From: Somniosus microcephalus
Lineage: Eukaryota
Direction: 5' to 3'
Assembly: GCA_052327205.1 (NCBI GenBank)
Contig: CM126205.1
Location: 274,908,001 to 274,972,000 of the forward strand
DNA length: 64,000 bases
Part shown: one piece after another, positions 18,034 to 53,708 of the stretch
Layout of the letters: the number at the start of each line of letters is the position of its first letter
Numbering within the stretch: position 1 is the stretch's first letter
Translations under genes and position numbers: made by a program
The notes under the pieces: generated by a model
Seen by the model: the letters and a program-made list of their open reading frames with translations, nothing else
Told to the model about the DNA's origin: nothing
Database searches by the model: none

Positions 18034-21000
18034 GGCCCTGAATTTGCGGTTGGTATGACGGCGTATGCTGAAATCGACCGCAAGTTCAAACGCATGCGCT
18101 AAATCCCGAACTTGTGATCTGTCAAGTTCTGACTCCGCTTCGGCTTTGCTCCATGTTTCACCTACCCATTCAAATTAACATGCTAGCGCAAAGTTGGGCT
18201 AATTGCCCACCTACTGTGCATTAAATATACCCTGAAAATGTTTATGGCAGGTACAAATAGGTGCAGGAGCCTGTTGCACAGCGTAAGAGTTGGAGTGGAT
18301 GAGAAAATTGTATTAATTTTGAGCTAGGTTTATGTTACGGCCATAAAAAGCATCCTAATTGAGTTTTATGGTTCCTATCCAGAGGCCAGAAACATTAACT
18401 TTCTGCTAAGTGCACTAAAGTATTAATAATTACTTTTGTGGCAGAACCACTGAATGACTCTGGCTAACTGTATATAATTCTCTTTAACGATGTTCTAACA
18501 CCAGCCTAAACCTGTACCATTGTGTTAGGCATTACTGTGTTTTGTATATAGAGTTTACATGTACGGGGCGTGGCCCCTTTAAGAGCGTGGGAAAACGCAG
18601 GCAAACGCGATGACGTCACGTTGCAAACCACGGGACTGCCCAGTGAGTCCTCGTGGCATCTCCGTTGAGTAAAGACCTGTTTAATTGTTCTCTGGTGTGT
18701 CGATCTCAGTTATTCGTAGGAATTCATCAATTCCTACATTGGTGACCCCTTCATAAATTCCTACATTGGTGACCCCGTTTTTGTGAACGTTTTCACAAAA
18801 GAAGAGCATGGAAGCAAACGCCGTTTCGCTAAAGCTACCGCAGTTCTAGGAGCAGCAAGCGCCCTCGTGGTTTATTCAGGTCGAGGCCCAGTTCACCCTG
18901 AGGAACATCGATGCAGATCAGACCAAGTATCTTTGTGGTCTCTGCACTCGACAGCTCTACCGCCTCTCGGATCGTCAGCCTCCTCGAAAACCCCCAACGG
19001 CGCGCAAGTATGAAACCCTCAAAGTGCGGTTACTGCAGGTTTTCGGGCTCACAAAATCGGAGCGCGCCTGTCGATTACTCGCTATGCCCGGGCTCGGGGA
19101 CGCCAAGCCTTCAGAGTTGATGAGCCAAGTGCTCACACTCCTGGGCTCAGAACGGGAATGTTTCCTTTTCCGCGAGATTTTCCTCAGCCAACTGCCTGAA
19201 CAGGTACAAGCTGCCCTGGCCAGATCTCAAACTGAAGACTGCGCAACACTCACTGCGGAGGCTGACACAATTTTCGCTGTAACTCGGCAGTACTGCGCCG
19301 CCACGAGGCATCCATCCTCCGCAGACACCGCCCCAGCTCGTCCGCCTGCTGGGCTGTGTTTCTACCACGCGCAGTTCGGAGCGAAAGCGAAGCGTTGCTG
19401 CCCTCCCTGCAGTTTTCCCCAAAAAAACCAACGACTGACAGGGCGACCACCGAGGAACAGGTCTAACGGGCACCCCGCGGCCGCAATGGCGATCGGCAAC
19501 GCGGGAAAATTGCTCTTCGTCACGGATACTCTCTCCGGTCGTCGTTTTCTGTGCGACACCAGAGCGCAGTGCAGCATTTTACCCGCGTCCGCCCTCTGTG
19601 CAGACGGGGAATCACGGCCCCGCCCTTGAAGCGGCCAATGGTAGAATGATTCGGACCTTCGGCAGACGGCGAGTGGAGTTGTGCCTCGGGGGGGGGGCAA
19701 CGTTTTCACTGAGTTTGTTACGGCCAAATTTTCCCAGCCCCTCCTCGGCGCAGATTTCCTGTGCGCCAACAGCCTCCTGGTCAACGTTCGGAACCGGCGG
19801 CTGATCAACGCAGCAACTTTTAATTCTCTTCTGTGTTACCACAGTAACACTACGTCACGCACCGTCTCCTGTGCGTTCCCGACTCCTGATGAGTTCGCTC
19901 GCCTGCTCAGCGAATTCCCCGACCTGACAAGACCCACGTTCTCCTCCACAGCCACGAAACATGGTGTGGAACACCATCACCAACGGCCCCCCGGTCTACG
20001 TGCGGGCCCAGCGCCTAGAACCTGGCAAGCTGGCGGTCGCAAAGGCCGAGTTCGCAACCATGGAACGGTTAGGGATTATTCGCCGGTCGAATAGTCCCTG
20101 GTCTTCACCCCTCCATATCGTCCCGAAGCCTGGCGGAGGATGGCGGCCATGCGGCGACTATCGATGACTAAACGACGCCACCACTCCTGATCCCCCCCCC
20201 CATATATCCAGGATTTCTCTACCCATTTGGCAGGGAACACCGTGTTCTCAAAAGTCGACCTCGTCCGGGGCTACCACCAGGTCCCAGTTCATCCACAAGA
20301 CGTCCTCTTCGAGTTTTTAAGGATGCCATTTGGGTTAAAGAACGCCGCCCAGGCTTTCCAACGCCTGATGGACTCCGTGCTGCAGGACCTCAAGTTCCTC
20401 TTCGTCTACCTGGATGATATTCTAATTGCCAGTCCCACTAAAGAAGAACATATCTGTCACCTACGCACCCTTTTTCGACGCCTCAGCCAACACGGCCTGA
20501 TTATCAACCCGGCCAAGTGTCAGTTTGGCCTGCACCAAATTGACTTCCTGGGGCATCGCATCACCTCAGAGGGAGCGGTTCCTTTACCTTCGAAGGTAGA
20601 GGCGGTGACATCCTTTCCATGCCCGCAGAACATAAAGGCCCTGCAGGAATTCCTAGGCATGGTAAACTTTTATCACCGTTTCGTGCCTAAGGCGGCACTA
20701 CTCATGCAGCCCCTGTACGAGGCCCTCAAGGGCAAGACTGGCAAGAACCCGGTAGACTGGACGGATGATATGGCCCGAGCGTTCGCCGACGCCAAAAGCG
20801 CCTTAGCCAACGCAACTATGCTGGCGCACCCGCTGCCAGGAGCCACCATTGCCCTCACCACCGACGCGTCGGACTAGGCAGTCGGTGCCGTGCAACAGCA
20901 GTGGGTGAACGGGACGTGGCAGCCGTTGGCATTCTTCAGCCGTCAACTACGGCAGAACGAGAGAGCATACAGCACGTTCGACCGGGAGTTGCTTGCCCTT

Positions 21001-23406
21001 TTTCTGGCCATCCGCCATTTTCGGTTCCTTCTGGAAGGACGTCCTTTCACCGCTTTTGTGGACCATAAGCCGCTGACCTTTGCAATGCCCAAGACTGCCG
21101 AACCGTGGTCAGCCCGACAGCAGCGTCAACTGACCTACATATCCAAATTCGGCACGTGGCCGGTAAGGACAACCTGGTGGCAGACTGCCTCTCCCGCGCG
21201 ATTGTCAAAACGGTTCATTTGGGCATCGACTACGCCCTCATGGCAGCGGACCAAGCCTCCGACCCGGAAGCCCAAGCTTACTGAACGGCCATCACTGGCT
21301 TCCAGTTGGCCGACGTCAAGTTCCATTCGGCAGGTACCACGCTGTTGTGTTACGTCAGTACAGGATCCTCGCCCTGTCGTGCCGGTTGTCTGGCGCCGCA
21401 AAGTGTTCGACGCCATACATGGGTTGTCACACCCTAGAATGAAGGCCTCTCAGAAACTGATGTCGGCGAAATTTGTATGGCATGGCATGCATAAGGATGT
21501 CCGCGATTGGGCCAACACCTGCGTGGTCTGCCAAAAGGCCAAGGTACAGCGCCACATCAAAGCTCCGTTGGCCGCCTTCACTGTTCCGGAGCGACGTTTT
21601 GACCACATCAACGTGGACCTGGTAGGACCGCTCCCACCCTCCCATGGTTTTTCTCACATCCTGACCGTGGTTGACCGCACCACCAGATGGCCAGAGGCGG
21701 TCCCCCTGTCATCCACTAATTCGGCGGACGTGGCCAGGGAGTTCATTTCCTCCTGGATCGCCCGTTTTGGAGTACCCGCCGATATTTCGTCAGACAGGGG
21801 ACCGCAGTTTTCCTCCGAACTCTGGAATGCAGTGGCCCAAGGACTCTGTCAAATTACACCGCACCACAGCCTACCACCCACAGGCAAATGGCCTCTGCGA
21901 ATGCTTCCACCGGTCAATGAAGGCCGCCCTGAGAGCCAGCCTCCAGGATGCTGGATGGGCAGACAGGCTACCGTGGGTCCTGTTGGGCCTTCGCACGGCC
22001 CCCAAAGAAGACCTTCACTCGTCATCAGCGGAGCTGGTGTATGGTCAACCGCTGCGGGTCCCGGGGGACTTCCTACCAACATCAACGGAGCAATGGTCCG
22101 CGTCTGCCCAGTTTGCTAGTCACCAAGAGGCGGCCAGATGTTTCGCACCGGTGCCCACTTCGCACCACTGGCTGCAGAGGTCACACGTTCCCACGGAGCT
22201 TCACAAGGCGGAATATGTTTTTATTCGCCATGACGCACATAGGGATCCGCTCAAGGCCCCATATACCGGCCCCGTCCGTGTGTTGGAAGCAGGGGACAAA
22301 ACCTTCACGGTCGATGTCGGTGGTAAGCCAGACCACATTTCGGTCGACCGCTTAAAGCCAGCACATTTGGACCTCGACCGCCCCGTCGAAACAGCACAAC
22401 CGCCGAGACGGGGTCGGCCACCCATCGTCGTTACGGCAGACCAAGTTCAACCGCCCGCCAGACCGCCCAGCAGCCTCCACCTCGAGAGTACAGGAGTCGT
22501 TCTGACAGGCTCGTCAGACCCCCTCACCGTTTGACTTTGTCCGTTAAAGCGAATTCTGGGGGGGCGCATGTGGCAGAACCACTGAATGAATGACTGGCTA
22601 ACTGTATATAATGATGTTCTAACACCAGCCTAAACCTGTACCATTGTGTTAGGCATTACTGTGTTTTGTATATAGAGTTTGCATGTACAGGGCGTGGCCC
22701 CTTTAAGAGCGCGGGTAAACACGATGACGTTTCGTCGCAAACCACGGGACTGCCCAGTGAGTCCTCGTGGCATCTCCGTTGAGTAAAGACCTGTTTAATT
22801 GTTCTCTGGTGTCGATCTCAGTTATTCGTAGGAATTCGTCAATTCCTACACTTTAATATCAATGCATTTAGGTTAAACTGTGCAAATCAAAATAACTTCA
22901 ATTTACTGTGTTAAGTAAAACTTCAAGCTTGTTCATCTTACCAGTCCTTTTTAGTTAAAATGAGTTGGCTTTTAAATAGTCAGCAATTTAAAAGCTGAAG
23001 CCTGGCATCAAATAATTTATCAACGATTGCGACGTGAAGAAAAATGCTTCAGTAATCTCTTGGAAAGTGTAGTGTGAACAGTAAAATAGATAAATAAATA
23101 AATAAAACCAGGTCAGCTGCTCAGATGGACTTCCTGCAAAGCTTAATGCTGTCCCATCGGAGATTTCTACCTTTCCTGATTGGCTAAGAGTCAGGAAGTG
23201 AATGGAGCACCGCCCCACGTGATCCCAGGTATGCTTACGCACAGCAGTGTGCTCCTGGAATCCGTGGGCCACTACACTGCGCACAACTCCACAGCGTTTC
23301 AAAGCAACTTTTCAAAGGGGGCTTTGCACAAGCTAAGTGCGAAGTTTGTTCTGAAGTCGTTGCCTGTGTACTCCTTAGCTACACTGCTGACTGCAAATTC
23401 GGGGCT
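18034..23406. mobile_element. Non-autonomous TIR element (Harbinger-like) split by an LTR retrotransposon
   Basis: GGCCCTGAATTTGC at 18034 and GCAAATTCGGGGCT ending at 23406. Flanks atc/att. Internal similarity to 58364-59444. Confidence 0.55.
18437..22850 (+). mobile_element. Full-length decayed Ty3/Gypsy LTR retrotransposon, CsRN1-clade-like
   Basis: LTRs 18437-18738 and 22569-22850 (TG...CA) with 4-bp TSD CTTT. PBS TGGTGACCCC(G) complementary to tRNA-Trp; G-rich PPT. Gag from ATG 18808 with CHCC motif CFYH..C..PPC, protease FLCDT, RT YLDD, RNaseH TDASD, integrase HHCC/SDRG. Stops and frameshifts present. Confidence 0.93.
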
Positions 23407-38628: not shown

Positions 38629-39268
38629 ATATCAAAACTGAATCATAACATCATGAGCTTTCATGAGTTTTTAGCTCTTGGTATCCAAATATTAAATGGT
38701 GAATGTTTTAAGTAACAATCAAACTTATTTTTATTTAGATCTTGTTTTGAAAGTATTACTTTTTATGTTCTATGTGAGCACCCATTGGAACTCTTTATTT
38801 AAAAAAAAAAATAAAAAAAAAATTTTTTTTTTTAAAAATGATGGATTGCCATCCTGTAAATCATAATGTTATTCATATCCATCATTGAAATTAAACAATT
38901 ATCAAAGACTAGTGGTTTACAAAAAATAAGATACTTATGCTTCAAGTATGAGTGAGTCATGTCAGTGGGTTATTTTCTGTAAACTGGCAGTTGGTAGACT
39001 GTTAAACTTGGCTTTTTCCTCAATTCCTGACCTTGCATGATGCCCAGGCACACCCATATTAACACTTTAGCTGCCCTTTTTCATAGTGATTTGTAAATTG
39101 TGGATTGCAGAACAAGCACTTCTCTGCGCCGTAGCAAGTGCCATCTAAACAGCTTTTTACGTTGCACGTATTCACACCAAAATAAAGACTCCATAGAAGT
39201 CATAAAATAAAAGCACCAAAGGTTCATACAGTAGTCAGCAGGAACTGCTACAGTTCATATTACCTTAG

Positions 39269-42200
39269 TGTAATGAAATCTGTTTGTCTTGATCCTGTAT
39301 TCGTTTTGCACTCATGTATATTACCCTCCCCCACTGTGTATAGTTTCACTTCCTCTTTCCCGACTAACCTGGGAGGTTCCAGGTCTTGGCTCTTGGCTCT
39401 GCCCCTGACTTCTCTTACATAAAGATCCCAGGATCTGTATGACTCATTCCTGTGAACCAGTCGGCGTGTTGAGATGTTAGCTCTGATCTTAGTGATTAAA
39501 AGCCAACTTGTTTAAGTCTATAACTTCTAGTTTTGTGGTTATTGAAGGCCCATCAATTTCAATCACTAAAGAATACTAGGATGGATCGACTCCTAAAACC
39601 AGAGCGTCTGGACTTGGACCCACATTCTGCTGAAGCATCAAATCAATTTGGACACTGGCTCAAATGCTTCGAACTCTTCGCGGGGGCCTCATCTGCTAGC
39701 GAGGTAGATAAACTGAGTCTACTGACTACTCGCGTAAGTCATCGGATTTATTCGTTCATCCGGGACGCCACCTCTTACATGGAGGCCATCACTATCCTGA
39801 AGGCCCAATACCAGAGGCCGGTAAACGAAGTGTACGCCAGACATCTGCTGGCTACACGCAGGCAGCGACCAGAGGAATCAATGGACGATTTCTTACAGGG
39901 CCTAAAGGACCTGGTCCGGGACTGTAACTGCAAGGCCGTGACGGCCAACGCGTACTCTGACGAATTGGTCCGCGATTCCTTCATCACAGGCCTCAAATCG
40001 AATTATATCCGGCAGAGACTGCTGGAGAAGGAGGTCCTGGACTTAAAAAAGGCAGTGGCCACTGCGCGATCGCTGGACGTGGCCCAGAAAAACTCCGACT
40101 CTTATTCTTCCGGCCATGCGGCCCTCACCGCCTCGTGTGCGCCGAGGGGGCCGCCATCTTGGAATCAGCCATCTTCCCCATCCAGGTCTCAGACCAGCTC
40201 TACGCCGCCGGCGTCCCCACACAGAAGTTCACCCAGGAGTCCTACTACAGTGGCAATGTCTCGAGGCCCGAAATGCTACTTCTGCGGCCAGGCCAAGCAC
40301 CCCAGACAATGATGCCCAGCGAAGGACGCTACATGCTTCAAATGTAAGAAAAAGGGGCATTTTAGCAAAGTCTGCAGGGGGAATCCGATTTCCAACTCCA
40401 TCACCGCCTCGTGCGTGCCGTGCGGGCCGCCATCTTGGGATCCGCCATCTTTTCCCGACTCAACGGCCACCCAGGGCCCAACAGTGGCTTCGATCACGGT
40501 GGATCAATCCAGGCCACACCCGTTGACAAAATCCATGATGGACATACAGGTAAACGGGAATTTAACGAAATGTTTAATTGACTGGGAGTACCAAGAGTTT
40601 TATCCACCCTAGCCTGGTACGGCGGCACTCATTAACGGTAACCCCTACATGGAGCAGAATTGCTATGGCTGCTAAGCCCCACACTTCGGACATTTTGGGC
40701 TACTGTGTGGTAACACTGACTGTAAAAGGCACGGACTACAAGGATTTTAAACTCCTCGTGATGCCAGAACTCTCTGTTAATGCAATCTTGGGCCTGGACT
40801 TCCAGTGCCACCACGAAAGTGTCACGCTAGCATATGGCGGGTCCCAGCCGCCACTCACAGTCTGTGGCCAATCAACCTTAAAAATCAGCCCGCCCTCTTT
40901 ATTCACTAATCTCGCTCCGAACTGTAGGCCCATAGCGACCAAAAGTAGACGGTACAGTCTGGAAGACAGACACTTTATCAAGGCGGAAGTGGACAGACTC
41001 CTGCGGGAAGGCATTATTGAATGCAGTACCAGCCCGTGGCGTGCCCAAGTAGTCATAGTTAAAAATAGCGAAAAGAAACGGATGGTAATTGACTACAGCC
41101 AGACTGTTAATATTTATACCCAGCTGGACGCCTACCCTTTACCCCGCATATCAGAAATGGTCAACCAGATTGCGCAATACCAAGTCTTCTCGACTATCGA
41201 CCTCAAATCCGCGTATCACCAGCTCCCCATTAGAACGGAGGACCGCCCATACACCGCCTTCGAGACGAACGGGCGCCTCTACCATTTTCTCAGAGTGCCC
41301 TTCGGGGTAACAAATGGGGTCTCGGTCTTCCAACGTGAGATGGACCGCATGGTTGACGAGAATAAACTACAAGCTACCTACCCCTATCTGGACAATGTCA
41401 CTATCTGCGGGCACAACCAGCAAGACCACGATCTAAATCTTGCGAGATTTTAAAAAACTGCCCTAAAGCTGAATCTAACCTACAACGAAGACAAATGTGT
41501 CTTCAACACAACCCGTCTCTGTATCCTCGGCTGTGTGGTGGAAGATGGGGTAATTGGACCGGACCCTGACCGATTACGCCCCCCTAAAGGAACTGCCCCG
41601 CCACACAATCCCAAAGCTTTAAAAAGGTGCCTGGGATTTTTTTTCGTATTATGCCCAATGGGTGCCCAATTACTCTGATAAGGCCCGACCCCTCATTAAA
41701 TCGACGTCCTTCCCACTATCAGCTGAAGCTCGGGAGGCTTTCACCAGTATTAAACAGGACATTGAAAGGGCTGCAGTGTGTGCAGTGGACGAATGCGTTC
41801 CCTTTCAAGTCGAAAGCGATGCGTCAGACTTTGCCTTAGCTGCGACCCTCAATCAGGCTGGGAGATCTGTGGCCGCCTTCTCCCGAACCCTTCAGGGACC
41901 TGAAATCAGGCACTCTTCTGTCGAGAAGGAGGCACAGGCTATAGTGGAGGCAGTGCGGCACTGGAGACACTACCTAGCCGGCAAACGTTTCACCCTGCTC
42001 ACCGACCAGCGGTCGGTGGCTTTCATGTTTAATAACAAACAAAGGGGGAAAATCAAGAATGACAAAATACTCAGGTGGAGGATCGAACTATCCACGTTCG
42101 ACTATGATATTATGTACAGGCTGGGAGCCCTTAATGAACCCCCAGACGCCCTATCGCGGGGAATGTGTGCCAGCATTCATACGGACAAATTACAGGGTCT

Positions 42201-43618
42201 CCACAACGACCTCTGTCACCCAGGGGTCACCCGACTATACCATTTTATAAAGTCCCGCAATCTGCCCCACTCCATCGAGGAGGTCAGGGCAATGACCAGA
42301 GCCTGCTGCATCTGTGTGGAATGCAAGCCTCGTTTCTACAGGCCTGACCGTGCACACCTTATCAAAGCCACACGGCCATTCGAGCGCCTAAGTCTGGACT
42401 TCAAGGGACCCCGCCCCTCTGCCGACCGTAACGTATACTTCCTCAATATCATTGATGAATATTCCCGCTTCCCCTTCACCATTCCCTGCCCAGACATGCT
42501 CAGTGCCATGGTCATCAAGTGTCTCTGTAATCTATTCTGCATGTTTGGCATGCCGAACTACATACACAGCGATAGGGGGACGTCATTCATGAGTGACGAG
42601 CTGCGCCAGTTCTTTCTCTCGAAGGGGATAGCCACTAGCAGAACCACTAGCTACAACCCCCGGGGTAATGGGCCAGTGGAAAGGGAGAATGCTACTGTTT
42701 GGAAGGCTGTCAAGTTAGCCTTAAAGTCAAAAGGCCTTCCGACCTCCCGCTGGCAGGAAGTCCTCCCAGACGTGCTCCACTCCATAAGGTCTCTGTTATG
42801 TACTGCCACTAACGTTACCCCTCACGAAAAGATGTTTGTTTTCCCCCGGAAATCCACCTCGGGCATATCTCTACCCGCGTGGCTGACTTCTCCGGGGACA
42901 GTACTATTGCGGAAGCACGTGAGAGGCCATAAAACGGACCCCCTTGTGGAAAAGGTACAGCTCCTCCATGCAAACCCTCAGTACGCCTATATCGAATACT
43001 CTGACGGGCGAGAGGACACTGTTTCCATAAAAGACCTCGCTCCCTCGGGGAGCGGAGAGAACGATGGGAGACTACCCGATGAAGACCTACACTACAAAGA
43101 GACGGGACGCTCAGAGGTATCAATACCCAACTTTAACCTGGAGGACACTGCAGATAACCTGGAAGACACTGCGGAGGCCTGGACAGCGGAGGAACCAGAA
43201 TCCACTCCCCTAGAGGCACCCCAACCGGCTTTGCGTCGATCACTGAGAACTGCAAAACCTCCTGACAGACTCACTTATACCAACTTTTAAGAAACATCAC
43301 CCCGATGGACTAAATCTATAGAAGGGGTGAATGTAATGAAATCTGTTTGTCTTGATCCTGTATTCGTTTTGCACTCATGTATATTACCCTCCCCCACTGT
43401 GTATAGTTTCACTTCCTCTTTCCCGACTAACCTGGGAGGTTCCAGGTCTTGGCTCTTGGCTCCGCCCCTGACTTCTCTTACTTAAAGATCCCAGGATCTG
43501 TATGACTCATTCCTGTGAACCAGTCGGCGTGTTGAGATGTTAGCTCTGATCTTAGTGATTAAAAGCCAACTTGTTCAAGTCTATAACTTCTAGTTTTGAG
43601 GTTATTGAAGGCCCATCA
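39269..43618 (+). mobile_element. Full-length Ty3/Gypsy LTR retrotransposon without tRNA PBS
   Basis: 287-bp LTRs 39269-39555 and 43332-43618 (TG...CA, 4 mismatches by eye), 5-bp TSD CTTAG, PPT agaaggggtgaa. Gag ATG 39581 with two Zn knuckles, protease, RT YLDN, RNaseH SDASD, integrase HHCC/DFKGP/SDRG. Few stops or frameshifts. Confidence 0.95.
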
Positions 43619-43896
43619 CTTAGTATTTAGACTAATTGGATAGCTCTTTGAAAGAGTCGGCGCAGGAAATATGGGCCGAATGACTTCATTCTGTGCTGTA
43701 TGGTTCTGTTATTCAGAGGAGCAGAAACTTTCTAATGAGGAATAGAGGAATTACAAATTCCACAGTGGAGCAAAATTGCCCATGCAATGAGTACTTCCTT
43801 GTATCCCTCACCACTCATCCTCACCCCCCCCCCCCCTTCCAACTCCACTTCCTTTTGTATCTGCTGAGGAAAAAATAAGCTTTCCCCAAAGTCACT

Positions 43897-47738: not shown

Positions 47739-47827
47739 GGGGGTGATTTTGACAATGGGGGCGCGTTGGAGGCGGGATTGCTGCTTGTCGGGTTTTAGTC
47801 CCGCCTCTATCAACTTGTGGCCAATAC

Positions 47828-50800
47828 TATTATGTCCGTGTATAAATGAGACACGGACTGCAGGAGTTGATTATAACAAGTCTTTACTGAATGGAGACAA
47901 CCTGGAAACTGAAACTACAGAAGCCTGCTAGGGCCTTTTATACAGGGGTGGTCACTGCCGGTACTGCAGTCTGAGACCAGTTATTCCCTTAAAGGTACAT
48001 ACACAACAATTCCTCCCCTTTTAGATAAGCAGTACATAACATTCATTTAACAACTAAATAATAACTAATTACAATTACGGTTGCTAGATACATTGGTTGA
48101 AGTTAAGCAATTATAAGTTCAGCCTTTGAGGAGGCTTCCTGATTCTGTCTGGATAACGCCTCTTTGGGATATCAGGTTCTTCTGGCAAGGTTGAGTCGGG
48201 ATCAATGTCGTTGTTTGGTTTGTCTGCTTCCAATATCACCGATTCTGCGGTAGATGCAATTGGTACTTTGGTTTCATCGCCAGGTGTATCAGATCGTGGT
48301 GTGGAGTTGACGTTTTCCAGTGACTCTAGAATCTGGTCAGCATGGCGTCTTACAATGCTCTCTCCAACATCCATGGTATACATTAGAGGTCCTTGCCATG
48401 TACAGATCGTTCCTGGCTGCCATTTCCCTGTGCGGTAGTCCCGGGCCAAAACTGGTTGACCTATCTTAAAACTCCTGGTCGGCCTTTCATTCATATTCTG
48501 AAACTGCCTGTTCTCCACATCTCTTCTGATGTTTGGCTTAACCAAATCCAAGTGGCATCGTAGTCTTCGATTGAAGAACATCATGGCTGGAGTTTGGTTG
48601 GTAACCGCATGTGTCGCATTCCGGTAGGCAAACAAGAAGTTGTCCACCTTGTGTTGTAGGGGTATATCTTCATTACACATTGCCTTGATAGCCTTCTTGA
48701 ATGTTTGAACAAACCTCTCGGCCAATCCATTAGTGGCTGGATGATATGGGGCGGTGTGTAATGCTTAACACCATTGTTCTTTAAGAACCTCCGGAACTCT
48801 TCAGACACAAACTGTGGTCCATTGTCAGAGCAAATCTGTTCAGGCAGCCCATTCCTGGCGAATATGGTTCGTAAGACTGATAGTTTTTTCTGTGGTGGTT
48901 GAGGACATTTTTACTACCTCTGGCCACTTTGTGCATCCACCGCAATTAAAAACAGAGTCCATAAAGGGACCAGCAAAATCAATGTGCACCCTTTGCCATG
49001 GAGATGAGGGCCACTCCCATGGATGTAGAGGGGCTTGTGGGGTGGGGTGTTTTGGACCTTCTGGCATCCTGTACAGCTCTTGGTCATCTCTTCGATTTCT
49101 CTATCGATTCCCAGCCACCACACAAACGCTCTGGCTAAGTTCTTCATTTTTACCCCTCCCAGATGACCCTCATGAAGCTCATTGAGCACTCTATCCTTCA
49201 ATTTGGGTGGAATTACTACTCTGGATCCACACATCAAGGTTCCTCTGCACACTGACAGCCGTTCTCTTCTCGGCGAGAATACTGGCAGCAGTCGTTCGCC
49301 ATGTGCTGGCCATCCCTTCACCGTTAAATCATAGACCCAGGAGAGTGTCGGGTCATTTCGTGTTTCCTTTTCTGTGTTTGCATTCGTCACAGGGAGACAT
49401 TCGACTATAGTCGAGTGGAATAACTCCACTGGATCCACTGCCAGTTCTTCTTCCACCGTCGGCAACGGTAGGCGCGACAATCCATCAGCATTCCCATGCT
49501 GTTTAGTTCCTTTGTACTCGATGTCATATTGGTGTGCCCCTAGGAAAAGGGACCACCTCTGTAGCCGTTGTGCCGTCATTATCGGTACACCCTTCTGAGG
49601 GTTGAAAATGGAGACGAGAGGTTGATGATCAGTTAGTAGAGTAAATTTCTGACGTGCAGGTAGTGATTGAACTTCTTCACCCCCCACACCAGGCTGAGGG
49701 CCCCTCTGTCAATCTGGGCGTAGTTACGCTCGGCTGAAGTTAACGAGCGTGACGCAAAAGCTATCGGCCTCTCTGAACCATCAAGGAATTTACGTGACAG
49801 TACCACCCCAACACCGTAGGGAGACGCATCACACGCCCGACTTATCGGTAGTGATGGGTTGTAGTGAGCCAATACTTCTCTTGAAGTGATTAGGTCCTTA
49901 CTCTTCTGAAAGGCCCGCTTACATTCGTCGCTCCATTTCCATGCTACTCCCGTTCGTAGTAGGGCATTCAGTGGATGCAGAATTGTGGACAAATTCGGCA
50001 AAAACTTATGGTAGTAATTCACCAATCCGAGGAATGACCTCAGTTGCGACACATTTTCAGGCGCTGGAGCCTTAACTACCGCTTCAATTTTGTCAGGGGA
50101 CTTATGCAACCCCTCCATCAATCACGTGGCCACAATACGATATCTGTTTCTTAAAAAACTCGCACTTAGGGCGATTGGCTCGTAGCCCATGTTCACGTAG
50201 TCTAGTGAGCACCTGCTCTAGGTTGGCAAGGTGTTCACTGTCATCTTCACCTATGTGGTAAACCACTGTTAACCCTGTACAAGTCCAGGCATGTCTCAGC
50301 CCCTGGCTCCACCCCTAAGCCCAGGTATAAAGGTGACTCACCACCCTTCCCCCGGGAGCTCTTAGGATGGATTCATTAGCAGAGGCATGCTCTAGTTCTT
50401 AGTCAATAAAAGCCTACTTCATTTAAGTCCATCTCGTAGTCTTTGGTATTGTTGATAGCACATCAACCTGTCACTAGGATGTCGTCCAAGTAACACTGAG
50501 TCCCCGGAATCCCTTGCAGGACTTGTTCCATCGCTCTTTGCCATATCGCCGGAGCTGAAGCTACTCCGAATACCAGTCGATTATACTGGTAAAGACCTTT
50601 TGTGAGTGTTTATCGTGAGATACTTTCTAGAGGATTCTTCAACCTCCATCTGCAAATATGCTTGTGCTAGGTCAATTTTTGTAAAACGCTTCCCTCCAGA
50701 TAGTGAGGCAAAGATATCTTCTATCCTTGGAAGAGGATATTGTACTGTGTGAAGGACTGGGTTCACCGTCACCTTGAAGTCCCCACAGATGCGAACCTTC

Positions 50801-53122
50801 CTTGGCTCCTCAGACTTATTGTTTAACGTTTTCTTCATGACGGGAACGATGGGTGTCGCCCACTCGCTCCAGTCTACCTTAGATAACATGCCTGCCTTCT
50901 CCAGCTCTGCCTCGACGGCTGGGCGAATTGCATATGGTACCGGTCTTGCTTTGAAAAACTTGGGAATTGCATTCTCCTCTATTTTTATCGAGGCGGTTAC
51001 GCCTTTAAGAGTGCCCAGTTCTTGTTGAAATACCTCTTTGGCGTCAGCTAAGATTGTTGACAATCGTCCAGGAGTGACGTTGTCATCCTTTTTACCAGCC
51101 ACCGTCAGTGCCTGAATGGAGTGCCAGTCTAAACTTATCTTTCTGATCCATTCACGTCCCAATAACGGTGGTCCACCATCTTGCAGAATGTAGAGATATA
51201 ATTTCCGTATTTTCTTGCCGTTGTATTCGACAGGCACCCTTATTTTTCCTCTGGGGTATACTTTTTGCCCCATATACGTCCTCAAGACAATGGATGTCTC
51301 GCTCAAGGGTATGTGTGAGAATAGCCGCTCGTAGTCTCGTCGATTCATGACGGTTAGAGCTGATCCTGTATCCAATTCCATTTTGACTTGGGATCCTGTT
51401 ATCGTGAGGGTGACCCAAATGGTTCGGTGATCCTCTTTTGTGATTACGTTGTGAAGTTTGAGACAGCTTAGTCTCTTGTTCCCGGATTCACTCGCTCATC
51501 TGGTTTTCGGAACTACTGTCCGTCATCTTTTGTACTTTCCTGTATGGTTCCTTAGTAGCCTTTTTGTTGTCGTTGGTCGTCTTCCCGGACCTGCAAACTC
51601 GTGCAATGTGTCCCATCTTTCCGCATTGCCTGCATGTTTTGTCCTTGGACCAGCAGTCCTTCTGGTCATGGTTTGTTCTGCCGCAGCGATAACATTTTGC
51701 AAATCCCCGTGTCATTTCGTGGGTGCCGTATTCCTGTGGCTTTTGTTGTATTTCCGCAGCTCCCCTTGCTGCTGCTTCGTACGATACTGCCACGCTGAAA
51801 GCCTTATCTAGCGTCAGCTCTTTCTCTGAGAGTAACCTCTTCTGGGTTCCTTCACTCAGGAGTCCACAGACAAATTTGTCCCGTAAGGTATCTGCCAGTC
51901 CTGCTCCGAACTGGCAGTGCTTTGATAGCTTGCATAGTTCCGTAAGGTAATCAGCATTGCTCTCATTTTTATGCTGATTTCTCCTGTGGAATTTAAATCT
52001 TTCTGCTATCAGCAGCGGTGTAGGATTTAGGTGTTCCTGTAGGATAGCAACAATTTCGTTAAAACTCTTCGCCTTCGGTTTGGCTGGAGTAATCAGGTCC
52101 CGCAATAGGCTGTACGTTCTTGCGCCCATTAAATTTAGCAATACCGATGCCTTTTTCTCATCGGCTATTTCATTTGCCTCGCAATATACCTCGACTCCTT
52201 CCACATACGTGGTCCAGTCTTCTATTGCATTATCGAAGGCAGTGATATCGCCAGTCTTTGGCATCTTGAAATCTAAGATGGCGCCTCCCGCGCTTTGCCT
52301 TCGTCCCCGCCGAGTTAAGATGGCGCCTCCCGTGCTTTCCCGCCGCTGCTGCCAACGCTGTTGCTGGCGATTATATTTATTTTACTATCCTGTAATGGCG
52401 ACGCCCTATGGTCTTCGCGCCTCCCCGATCACTGCTGCCAACGCCGCTCTCCGCGGTATTTTTATTTTTCTATCGCGCTTCAATATTTGCTCCGTTAATT
52501 GAAGAACCATTCCCCTTGTGGAGCGGACCCTCTGGGACACTTCCTTCCCTCCTTCCTAGGTCCGAGCGCTGCCCGGCTGCGAAGCACCGGCTGCGCCCTG
52601 TGTGCTCCACCCTCTCTCTTTGCTTCCCGACTCCCTGCCCGGCCCCGTTGCAGAGCCACCCGATCGAGCTCTAGCCCGCCGCAGCCCAGGAAGGATCAGT
52701 GCACTACCTGCCACCAGCCCGATTAGCTGGGAAACCACAGACTGGAGACCAAGCCTGGCTCTCGACAGTCTCTCCTGCACTTTTCAATTCGATGATTTGG
52801 AGGGTGGTTGCCCACGGTCGACGCCCGTTTCTCGAGTTTCTTTGGATTATTATTTTTTTCTTTCTTCTGGCTTCGACCTTCAATAACGTCGTCTGAGGTG
52901 CTGCCGAGTTGCAGGTAAGTTTGTTTCTTACTCATCGCCAGTATTATGTCCGTGTATAATTGAGACACGGACTGCAGGAGTTGATTATAACAAGTCTTTA
53001 CTGAATGGAGACAACCTGGAAACTGAAACTACAGAAGCCTGCTAGGGCCTTTTATACAGGGGTGGCCACTGCCGGTACTGCAGTCTGAGACCAGTTATTC
53101 CCTTAAAGGTACATACACAACA
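47828..53122 (-). mobile_element. Full-length Ty3/Gypsy LTR retrotransposon, Mag-clade (K02A2.6-like)
   Basis: 181-bp LTRs 52942-53122 (5') and 47828-48008 (3'), 2 mismatches by eye, 5-bp TSD AATAC. PBS TGGCGATGAG (tRNA-Ser-GCU-like), PPT aaaaggggaggaa. Gag 52264 with two CCHC, protease LDTGS, RT YLDD, RNaseH CDASPYG, integrase HIDFAGP/AERFVQ. Confidence 0.95.
50254..50465 (+). mobile_element. Solo LTR nested in the RT gene of the Mag element
   Basis: TG...CA, 212 bp, TATAAA near 50327, AATAAA at 50405. Flanks ACCTA/ACCTG. Removing it restores [17 protein letters not shown]. Confidence 0.85.
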
Positions 53123-53708
53123 AATACACGCTATTTTCCCTTGATTAACCTTGTTAAGCCCACCAATTAAGGGGAAGCCGGTTACAGAGAACATCAGTGT
53201 ATGACGTTTCATCTGTCAATTTTTGACAGATGAATTGTCATTGTTTGACAGCTCTGTGAAGCTGTCAAACACTGACATTCTCTGTTGTTTGAGTCCTTGT
53301 ATTCAAGACTCATCAAACCTATCTGCTGAGCAGAAATCAGATGGCGGTTGCATCGGAGAATGCAGCAGCCATCTGTCATATCTCTGCCGGTGAGATGAGG
53401 AGTCTCCGGTTCCCCAACGGTTGAAGCCTGCAGGAAGAAACAAAGGTAAGTAAACATTTTCTATCACTTTTCACTCACCTCACATAATTGCCTCTCCACA
53501 CTTGCACCCATCACTTACCTCCACAGCGCACTTTTGGGCCCCTCCAAGCCCCGCAAACCCACTGCTCGCCTCGATGACCCTGACGGGGTTTCCTGGCGTC
53601 GGGAAGCCTGCGCCTCTGCTGGGAAAACGGGGATAATCCTCTTAACTGCCTGTTAATTACCTGATTCTGACTGGTGTCATCACAGGCGAAGTTGACCTAA
53701 TTGATGGC

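Follow-up and report, generated by a model that had tools for sequence, protein, structure and literature searches.

How is reverse transcription primed in an LTR retrotransposon that has no tRNA primer-binding site (PBS) and whose leader base-pairs with its own LTR? The question is raised by an element in the window, the whole 64,000-nucleotide stretch of Somniosus microcephalus DNA analysed here. A sequence-only reading of this stretch had proposed that the element is primed independently of tRNA, through the poly(A)-signal region of its LTR. Published work is cited by the excerpts available of each paper.

A gypsy element without a tRNA primer-binding site

The element (39270-43618) is a 4.35-kb Ty3/gypsy LTR retrotransposon without a chromodomain. 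Its assignment follows from LTRs of the TG...CA type, a target-site duplication, a polypurine tract and Pfam domains that run protease, reverse transcriptase (RT), RNase H, integrase. The features are listed below; the TATA-like and initiator-like labels are what we take these two motifs to be.

39265..39269 (+), target-site duplication CTTAG (5 bp), left copy; right copy at 43619-43623
39270..39555 (+), 5' LTR, 286 bp, TG...CA, four differences from the 3' LTR, ending ...CCCATCA
39416..39424 (+), TATA-like box TACATAAAG, 73 nt ahead of the paired segment
39444-39450 (+), initiator-like TCATTCC, 30 nt downstream of the TATA-like box; predicted start
39489..39501 (+), LTR side of the 13-bp helix and the predicted self-primer; includes ATTAAA at 39495-39500; predicted cut after 39501
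39502..39505 (+), RCC motif directly after the helix; in many families a short second hairpin begins here
39556..39580 (+), leader, 25 nt, no TGG; Gag ATG at 39581
39557..39569 (+), leader arm, lying where a PBS would be; pairs with 39489-39501 (12/13 in the window copy)
39581..40312 (+), start of Gag; in the window copy a stop at 40310-40312, with frame breaks beyond
40578..41453 (+), piece spanning protease and RT, with YLDN as the RT active-site motif
41623..43290 (+), RNase H and integrase piece, chromodomain absent
43321..43332 (+), polypurine tract and spacer ahead of the 3' LTR
43333..43618 (+), 3' LTR; motif copy at 43552-43564 without a leader partner downstream

The sequence-only reading had described an LTR ending in CCCATCA with no TGG behind it and only 25 nt of leader before the Gag ATG. 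Its coordinates are exact, with the LTR end at 39555, the leader at 39556-39580 and the ATG at 39581. The pairing that it described, of TTTCAATCACTAA (39557-69) with TTAGTGATTAAAA (39489-501) at 12 of 13 positions and overlapping ATTAAA at 39495-500, is likewise present. The mismatch, C39560, is private to the window copy: T occupies this position at 29 of 30 loci and in 146 of 150 RNA reads, and sister copies pair at 13/13. When shuffled LTRs were put through the same anchored search, 12/13 was reached in 1 of 1,450 trials, so that the match is above chance. A hairpin of TTCAAT with ATTGAA in U5, offered as an alternative pairing, depends on the private C39560, and U5-leader stems of at least 6 bp occur in 10/30 families against 8.0 expected; being at chance level across families, it is rejected.

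A TGG PBS deleted in this copy is rejected as an explanation. TGG is missing throughout the family, following the LTR in 0/30 loci and in 0/100 of the junctions listed among the 2,038 exact LTR-end/Gag-start junctions in the 6.45-Gb host genome. The exact 13-mer TTTTAATCACTAA is found in 91 of these 100 listed junctions (counted by eye), and the exact LTR-motif-plus-leader pattern occurs 1,865 times in the genome. The family is both young and large, with 98-100% identity over the first 100 Gag residues (150 scored matches).

The RT active site of the element reads YLDN instead of YxDD. Among 87 scorable homologs, 52 have xxDN and 35 have xxDD (17 of 104 were unscored). With the equivalent change in Ty1, D211N, transposition in vivo is lost, and changes in RNase H restore it in part, as reported in the excerpt of PMC2148107. 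The YLDN-bearing family is nonetheless present as thousands of near-identical copies, and a literature search found no paper on YLDN in gypsy elements.

Leader and LTR covary across families

Relatives were collected by Gag sequence, independently of the pairing. The sample consisted of 30 loci retrieved with a degenerate pattern (100 listed of 410 matches), 18 refetched or further regions (four of them not this element) and 80 metagenome loci (79 usable). Pairing at 12/13 or better is found in 120 of 145 distinct loci, 61/66 in the host genome and 59/79 in the metagenomes. Many of the 25 non-pairing loci apparently have no upstream LTR or lie at a contig edge, and five of them score 10-11/13. 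When 154 loci were clustered at 80% Gag identity, 36 families resulted, and in 29 of them the best copy matches at 12-13/13; taking the best copy per family inflates these figures, and the families are related and hence not independent.

The helix cells of the 29 pairing families comprise 373 Watson-Crick pairs, 4 mismatches and no G-U pair (0/377). These families carry 27 different 13-mers, and leaders matched to the LTRs of other families reach 12/13 in only 8 of 812 comparisons. An unanchored search for the longest stem recovered the identical helix, and in many elements the LTR ends were set independently from the 3' LTR. Closely related subfamilies differ on both sides of the helix, as where GCT-ATTAAA in one stands against GCT-AATAAA in another, with leaders altered to match, and at least eight different leaders exist within this one genome. 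Within family A no compensation was seen, as all 12 copies changed at LTR position G6 have the usual leader (0/12). Nine G6 variants were found with a 3' LTR, eight altered in the 5' LTR only and one in both LTRs. Templated copying cannot be assumed, since Ty1 and Ty3 do not carry their primer sequence over into the PBS (PMC5371799, in the excerpt).

A second LTR in the window allowed the leader of a sister family to be predicted:

50254..50465 (+), solo LTR belonging to a sister family, with the motif TTAGTCAATAAAA at 50399-50411 and TATA at 50326

This LTR has TTAGTCAATAAAAGCC at 50399 and the ATCA end, features that had been noticed earlier as shared with the element. The leader that it implies is ATTTTATTGACTAA. 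A pattern free of leader sequence found ten elements, and this leader is present in 10/10; in the full-length members of the family the leader is the exact complement of the LTR motif. The covariation on which the sequence-only reading made its case depend is thus borne out by pairing in 29/36 families through 27 different 13-mers and by this 10/10 prediction. The leader-LTR helix is a real, lineage-wide, covarying trait and not a quirk of a single copy. The solo LTR itself interrupts, in opposite orientation, the RT of an element at ~47818-53136 (-), presumably Mag-like, that has a long leader and a TGG PBS.

Helix geometry and the poly(A) hexamer

Leader +1 is an unpaired A in every one of the 29 scored families, and the helix runs from +2. 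The opposite edge is sharp, with 29-30 of 30 families paired at positions -1 to -13 and 14/30 at -14, and pairing continues to 15-18 bp in 7/29. The register is fixed to the LTR end and not to the ATG, as leaders range from 16 to 103 nt. The loop between the helix arms is 24-72 nt, and the helix ends 0-13 nt ahead of the ATG in many families. One family (L069-L071) has a leader of ~100 nt and the same 13-bp helix at +2, with a clear TATA 87 nt upstream in L071. CC directly follows the helix in 28/30 families, and a hairpin of at least 4 bp begins right after it in 23/30 against a shuffle expectation of 6.1 (10-18/30 at other offsets).

The poly(A) hexamer lies within the helix in 23/29 families, just downstream in three, and is absent in three. 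In the families of L144, L146, L147, L150, L157 and L079 the helix stops 5-6 nt short of the hexamer, and the RT branches of L146 and L147 are long. In folds that include 45 nt upstream, the mean pair probability of the helix, taken without a shuffle control, is at least 0.84 in 24/27 representatives; with the upstream start the window copy scores 0.0, rising to 0.52 in a fold that starts at the helix, and a family-A sister copy scores 0.55, rising to 0.96.

The conserved AG could also be read as a splice acceptor. The preceding base is a purine in 14/29 families, unlike YAG, and this reading was rejected. The LTRs of L068, L074-L076, L095, L114, L129 and L156 have, by eye, splice-acceptor-like branch-point or polypyrimidine/CAG sequences 5-50 nt upstream of the helix.

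Comparison with known self-primed elements

Among the papers cited here, the unrelated yeast element Tf1 is the one for which self-priming is demonstrated; the Tf1/sushi chromoviruses and one lineage of plant copia elements have it assigned to them. For the present clade, no Chromo match was found in the window pieces or in 6/6 full-length homologs. RT identity to one clade RT is 60% for the window element and 25-27% for sushi elements. In a quick tree, which has two outgroups only, 46 clade rows stand apart from 7 sushi rows and a CsRn1-like row with a support of 99; the Mag-like RT, being too short, is not in it. As judged from these sequences, the clade is placed outside the Tf1/sushi chromoviruses. 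Nor does it appear to be CsRn1 or Mag by tRNA PBS and RT similarity: the two tRNA-primed elements of the window show 31% (CsRn1-like) and 33% (Mag-like, over 63 aa) RT identity to a clade member. The former, a second Gypsy element at ~18471-22852 (+) that we take to be CsRn1-like, has a TGG PBS, and its LTR end and PBS are duplicated 27 nt apart, at 18733 and 18760.

Sushi-type copies of the same genome served as controls; 16 were fetched by chromodomain matches, 11 of them with a clear LTR pair. Their 11-nt segment lies 30-31 nt after a TATA box in 11/11, the loop is 153-162 nt and a poly(A)-like hexamer follows 67-75 nt downstream, in agreement with the description of Tf1 in the available parts of PMC7175516, PMC4600332, PMC5341516 and bioRxiv 10.1101/2022.12.06.519325. 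Like Tf1, Tf2, Tj1 and sushi, the clade has the Ty3/gypsy domain order and lacks a tRNA PBS, and the sequence that directly follows its 5' LTR is complementary to part of the LTR; the 1-nt spacer is shared with the sushi copies of this genome. Unlike Tf1/sushi, it has a helix of 13 rather than 11 bp, a loop of 24-72 rather than 153-162 nt, the hexamer mostly in the helix (23/29) instead of 67-75 nt downstream, and a strict TATA, where there is one, at -72 to -97 instead of -30, while chromodomain and pretzel helix are absent. This pretzel structure, a helix of at least 7 bp between U5 and the post-PBS sequence, was rejected for the clade, where it occurs in 0/30 families (1.7 expected) versus 6/10 sushi copies (1.0 expected). 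The young sushi-type chromoviruses L161-L174 have textbook Tf1 geometry, with a pretzel helix that includes the Gag ATG.

Self-priming is listed for Tf1/sushi, Tcn1 and TAR/Houba/Osr-1 in the excerpt of PMC6317226, whose criterion is a stretch of at least 10 nt, 0-5 nt after the LTR, that is complementary to the LTR. In the present clade 13 nt from +2 are complementary in 29/36 families. This likens it to TAR/Houba/Osr-1 (plant Ty1/copia) and Tcn1, for which self-priming was predicted from sequence on evidence of the same type (PMC6317226). The differences are that TAR is a copia element and Tcn1 a chromovirus, and the excerpt makes no mention of a poly(A)-signal overlap.

No relatives were found in viral contigs. 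Cigr-1 is an element of ~4.2 kb with one ORF of ~1,200 codons. On this description the clade resembles it in size and in its single ORF (1,190-1,240 aa). The Cigr-1 clade of Gypsy elements is described from Ciona and also from molluscs, and as abundant in Biomphalaria glabrata (PMC6238403, in the excerpt); a homolog of the studied clade (P0056) was found in Biomphalaria glabrata. The studied clade may be Cigr-1, or instead one of the MolGy clades.

Where transcription may start

Whether the paired LTR segment is internal to the RNA or at its very beginning depends on the transcription start. TATA-like boxes lie 65-97 nt ahead of the helix (73 nt in the window copy). A strict TATA is found at -72 to -97 in 5/30 families, including the window and solo-LTR families, and a looser motif in 7/29. 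None of the 30 families has a TATA at about -30 from the helix, and 25/30 have no strict TATA. The TATA positions would favour an internal primer segment; since 25/30 families lack a strict TATA, the internal position draws on five families (7/29 with the looser motif). At the helix start is an initiator-like Y-N-A-G, with A at -11 and G at -10 in 24/29 families each and a pyrimidine, usually T, at -13 in 26/29. This context and the sharp edge would favour a transcription start at the helix. In two raw RNA runs and one contig set, U3 and both strands were represented, and neither a transcription start nor a poly(A) site emerged; the pattern is consistent with read-through of many copies.

A model for the probable self-priming

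Whatever the primer, minus-strand synthesis has to begin at the LTR end, and the primer must therefore pair from leader +2. Because the leader from +2 onward tracks its own LTR through 27 variants, the RNA of the element is itself very probably the primer, whatever the geometry. Priming through the poly(A)-signal region of the LTR and independent of tRNA, as the sequence-only reading had it, gains support from the missing TGG and from the leader-LTR covariation; we infer the priming itself from these.

We lean, with a little less than even confidence, towards a primer that is a 13-nt LTR segment cut from inside R, and not the first bases of the RNA, and that pairs with the leader. RNA directed by the TATA box would begin ~45-60 nt upstream of the helix, and R would fold onto the leader. 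The RT/RNase H of the element would then cut at the 3' end of the helix, ahead of the RCC motif, and minus-strand DNA would be extended from the freed 3'-OH, beginning at leader base +1. For the first strand transfer, the 15-25 nt of R remaining downstream of the cut could be used. The length of 13 bp may, speculatively, mirror how far apart the polymerase and RNase H sites lie, ~13 bp in Ty3 RT (PMC5371799), with cuts measured at 11-12 nt (PMC11363490), both as given in the excerpts; this comparison with the Ty3 spacing is suggestive only. As a by-product, the helix would conceal AAUAAA/AUUAAA in the 5' LTR alone, no leader following the 3' LTR. Such masking, also raised in the sequence-only reading, is a plausible second use of the helix in the 23/29 families with the hexamer inside; because 6/29 families pair without a hexamer in the helix, it cannot be the universal reason for the pairing, and priming is favoured over masking as the constant function. 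The same problem exists in HIV-1, foamy virus and MoMLV if the signal is in R, and there it is handled by U1 snRNP, weak sites or structure within R (PMC3694450, in the excerpt), while the partner here is at the PBS position.

A lesser but real possibility is that the clade uses the geometry of Tf1, with a TATA-less, initiator-driven start at the helix, the first 11-13 nt acting as primer and the hexamer opening a very short R. Tf1 primes with its first 11 bases (excerpt of PMC7175516), and the sharp edge at -13, the bases favoured at -13, -11 and -10 and the higher helix probability in folds that start at the helix are all as such a start would have them; a primer ending at the cap would also spare a second cut. 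Against it stand the absence of any TATA near -30, where the sushi controls have one at -30/-31 in 11/11 and five of the 30 families of the clade have theirs at -72 to -97, the T that usually occupies -13 and is an unusual start base, and the pairing that extends to 15-18 bp in 7/29 families. Much less probable is that the 3' copy of R, from the same or a partner RNA, folds onto the leader and primes once it has been cut or trimmed after the hexamer, the 5' copy having no part as primer. A TATA-directed start would put the motif at both RNA ends, just upstream of the predicted 3' end, and Ty3 initiation draws on sequences from both RNA ends (PMC5371799, in the excerpt). The local 5' helix, whose probability in the upstream folds (at least 0.84 in 24/27, no shuffle control) was given above, would however form first, and strand transfer would be awkward.

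It is improbable, if somewhat less so than a 3'-end primer, that concealing the 5' poly(A) signal, or else controlling Gag translation, is all the helix does and that something else primes. The hexamer is within the helix in most families, the partner sequence exists for the 5' LTR alone, the helix ends close to the ATG in many families, and retroviruses with the signal in R must suppress that of the 5' LTR (excerpt of PMC3694450). Yet the 6/29 families that pair outside the hexamer, a register that follows the LTR end and not the ATG through leaders of 16-103 nt, and the absence of another primer site argue otherwise, and a masking helix should tolerate G-U pairs, which occupy 0/377 cells. 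The least probable reading is a host RNA, a half-tRNA or other small RNA, as primer, with the LTR match secondary or due to chance. Half-tRNA primers do occur in copia lineages (PMC6317226, in the excerpt), and our comparison spanned just four distinct host tRNAs (Cys and Lys; 30 fetched of 63 matches), to which the longest match of the leader is 6 nt. A fixed host RNA cannot, however, be the source of 27 different 13-mers that each track their own LTR; the same genome holds at least eight different leaders, and the chance rate of the match is 1/1,450. The tRNA genes include a tandem array with ~1.59-kb spacing at G000:C24:42.9-43.15 Mb (L196-L224).

Distribution and significance

A search turned up no publication that reports self-priming for an animal Gypsy clade outside the chromoviruses and none on a PBS complementary to a poly(A) signal; subscription papers, Repbase and GyDB lay outside this search. 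The sequences make it likely that the clade self-primes by a variant of the known mechanism, outside Tf1/sushi. The stronger proposal, that a widespread animal Gypsy clade evolved self-priming independently of Tf1/sushi and with another geometry, in which the primer is taken from inside R and is the poly(A) signal itself, we consider rather unlikely. Self-priming in a Gypsy clade that is not a chromovirus, and of which this genome carries young copies by the thousand, would be a further origin of the mechanism. If the primer is internal and lies over the poly(A) signal, priming and suppression of 5' polyadenylation, two problems facing every LTR element, would be joined in one short RNA structure. 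Such a clade would presumably be immune to silencing by tRNA fragments directed at the PBS, and annotation based on the PBS would call it defective. By named protein homologs, from sea cucumber, sea anemone, soft coral, woodlouse, snail, spider and aphid (protein homology only), the clade would span cnidarians, echinoderms, molluscs and arthropods.
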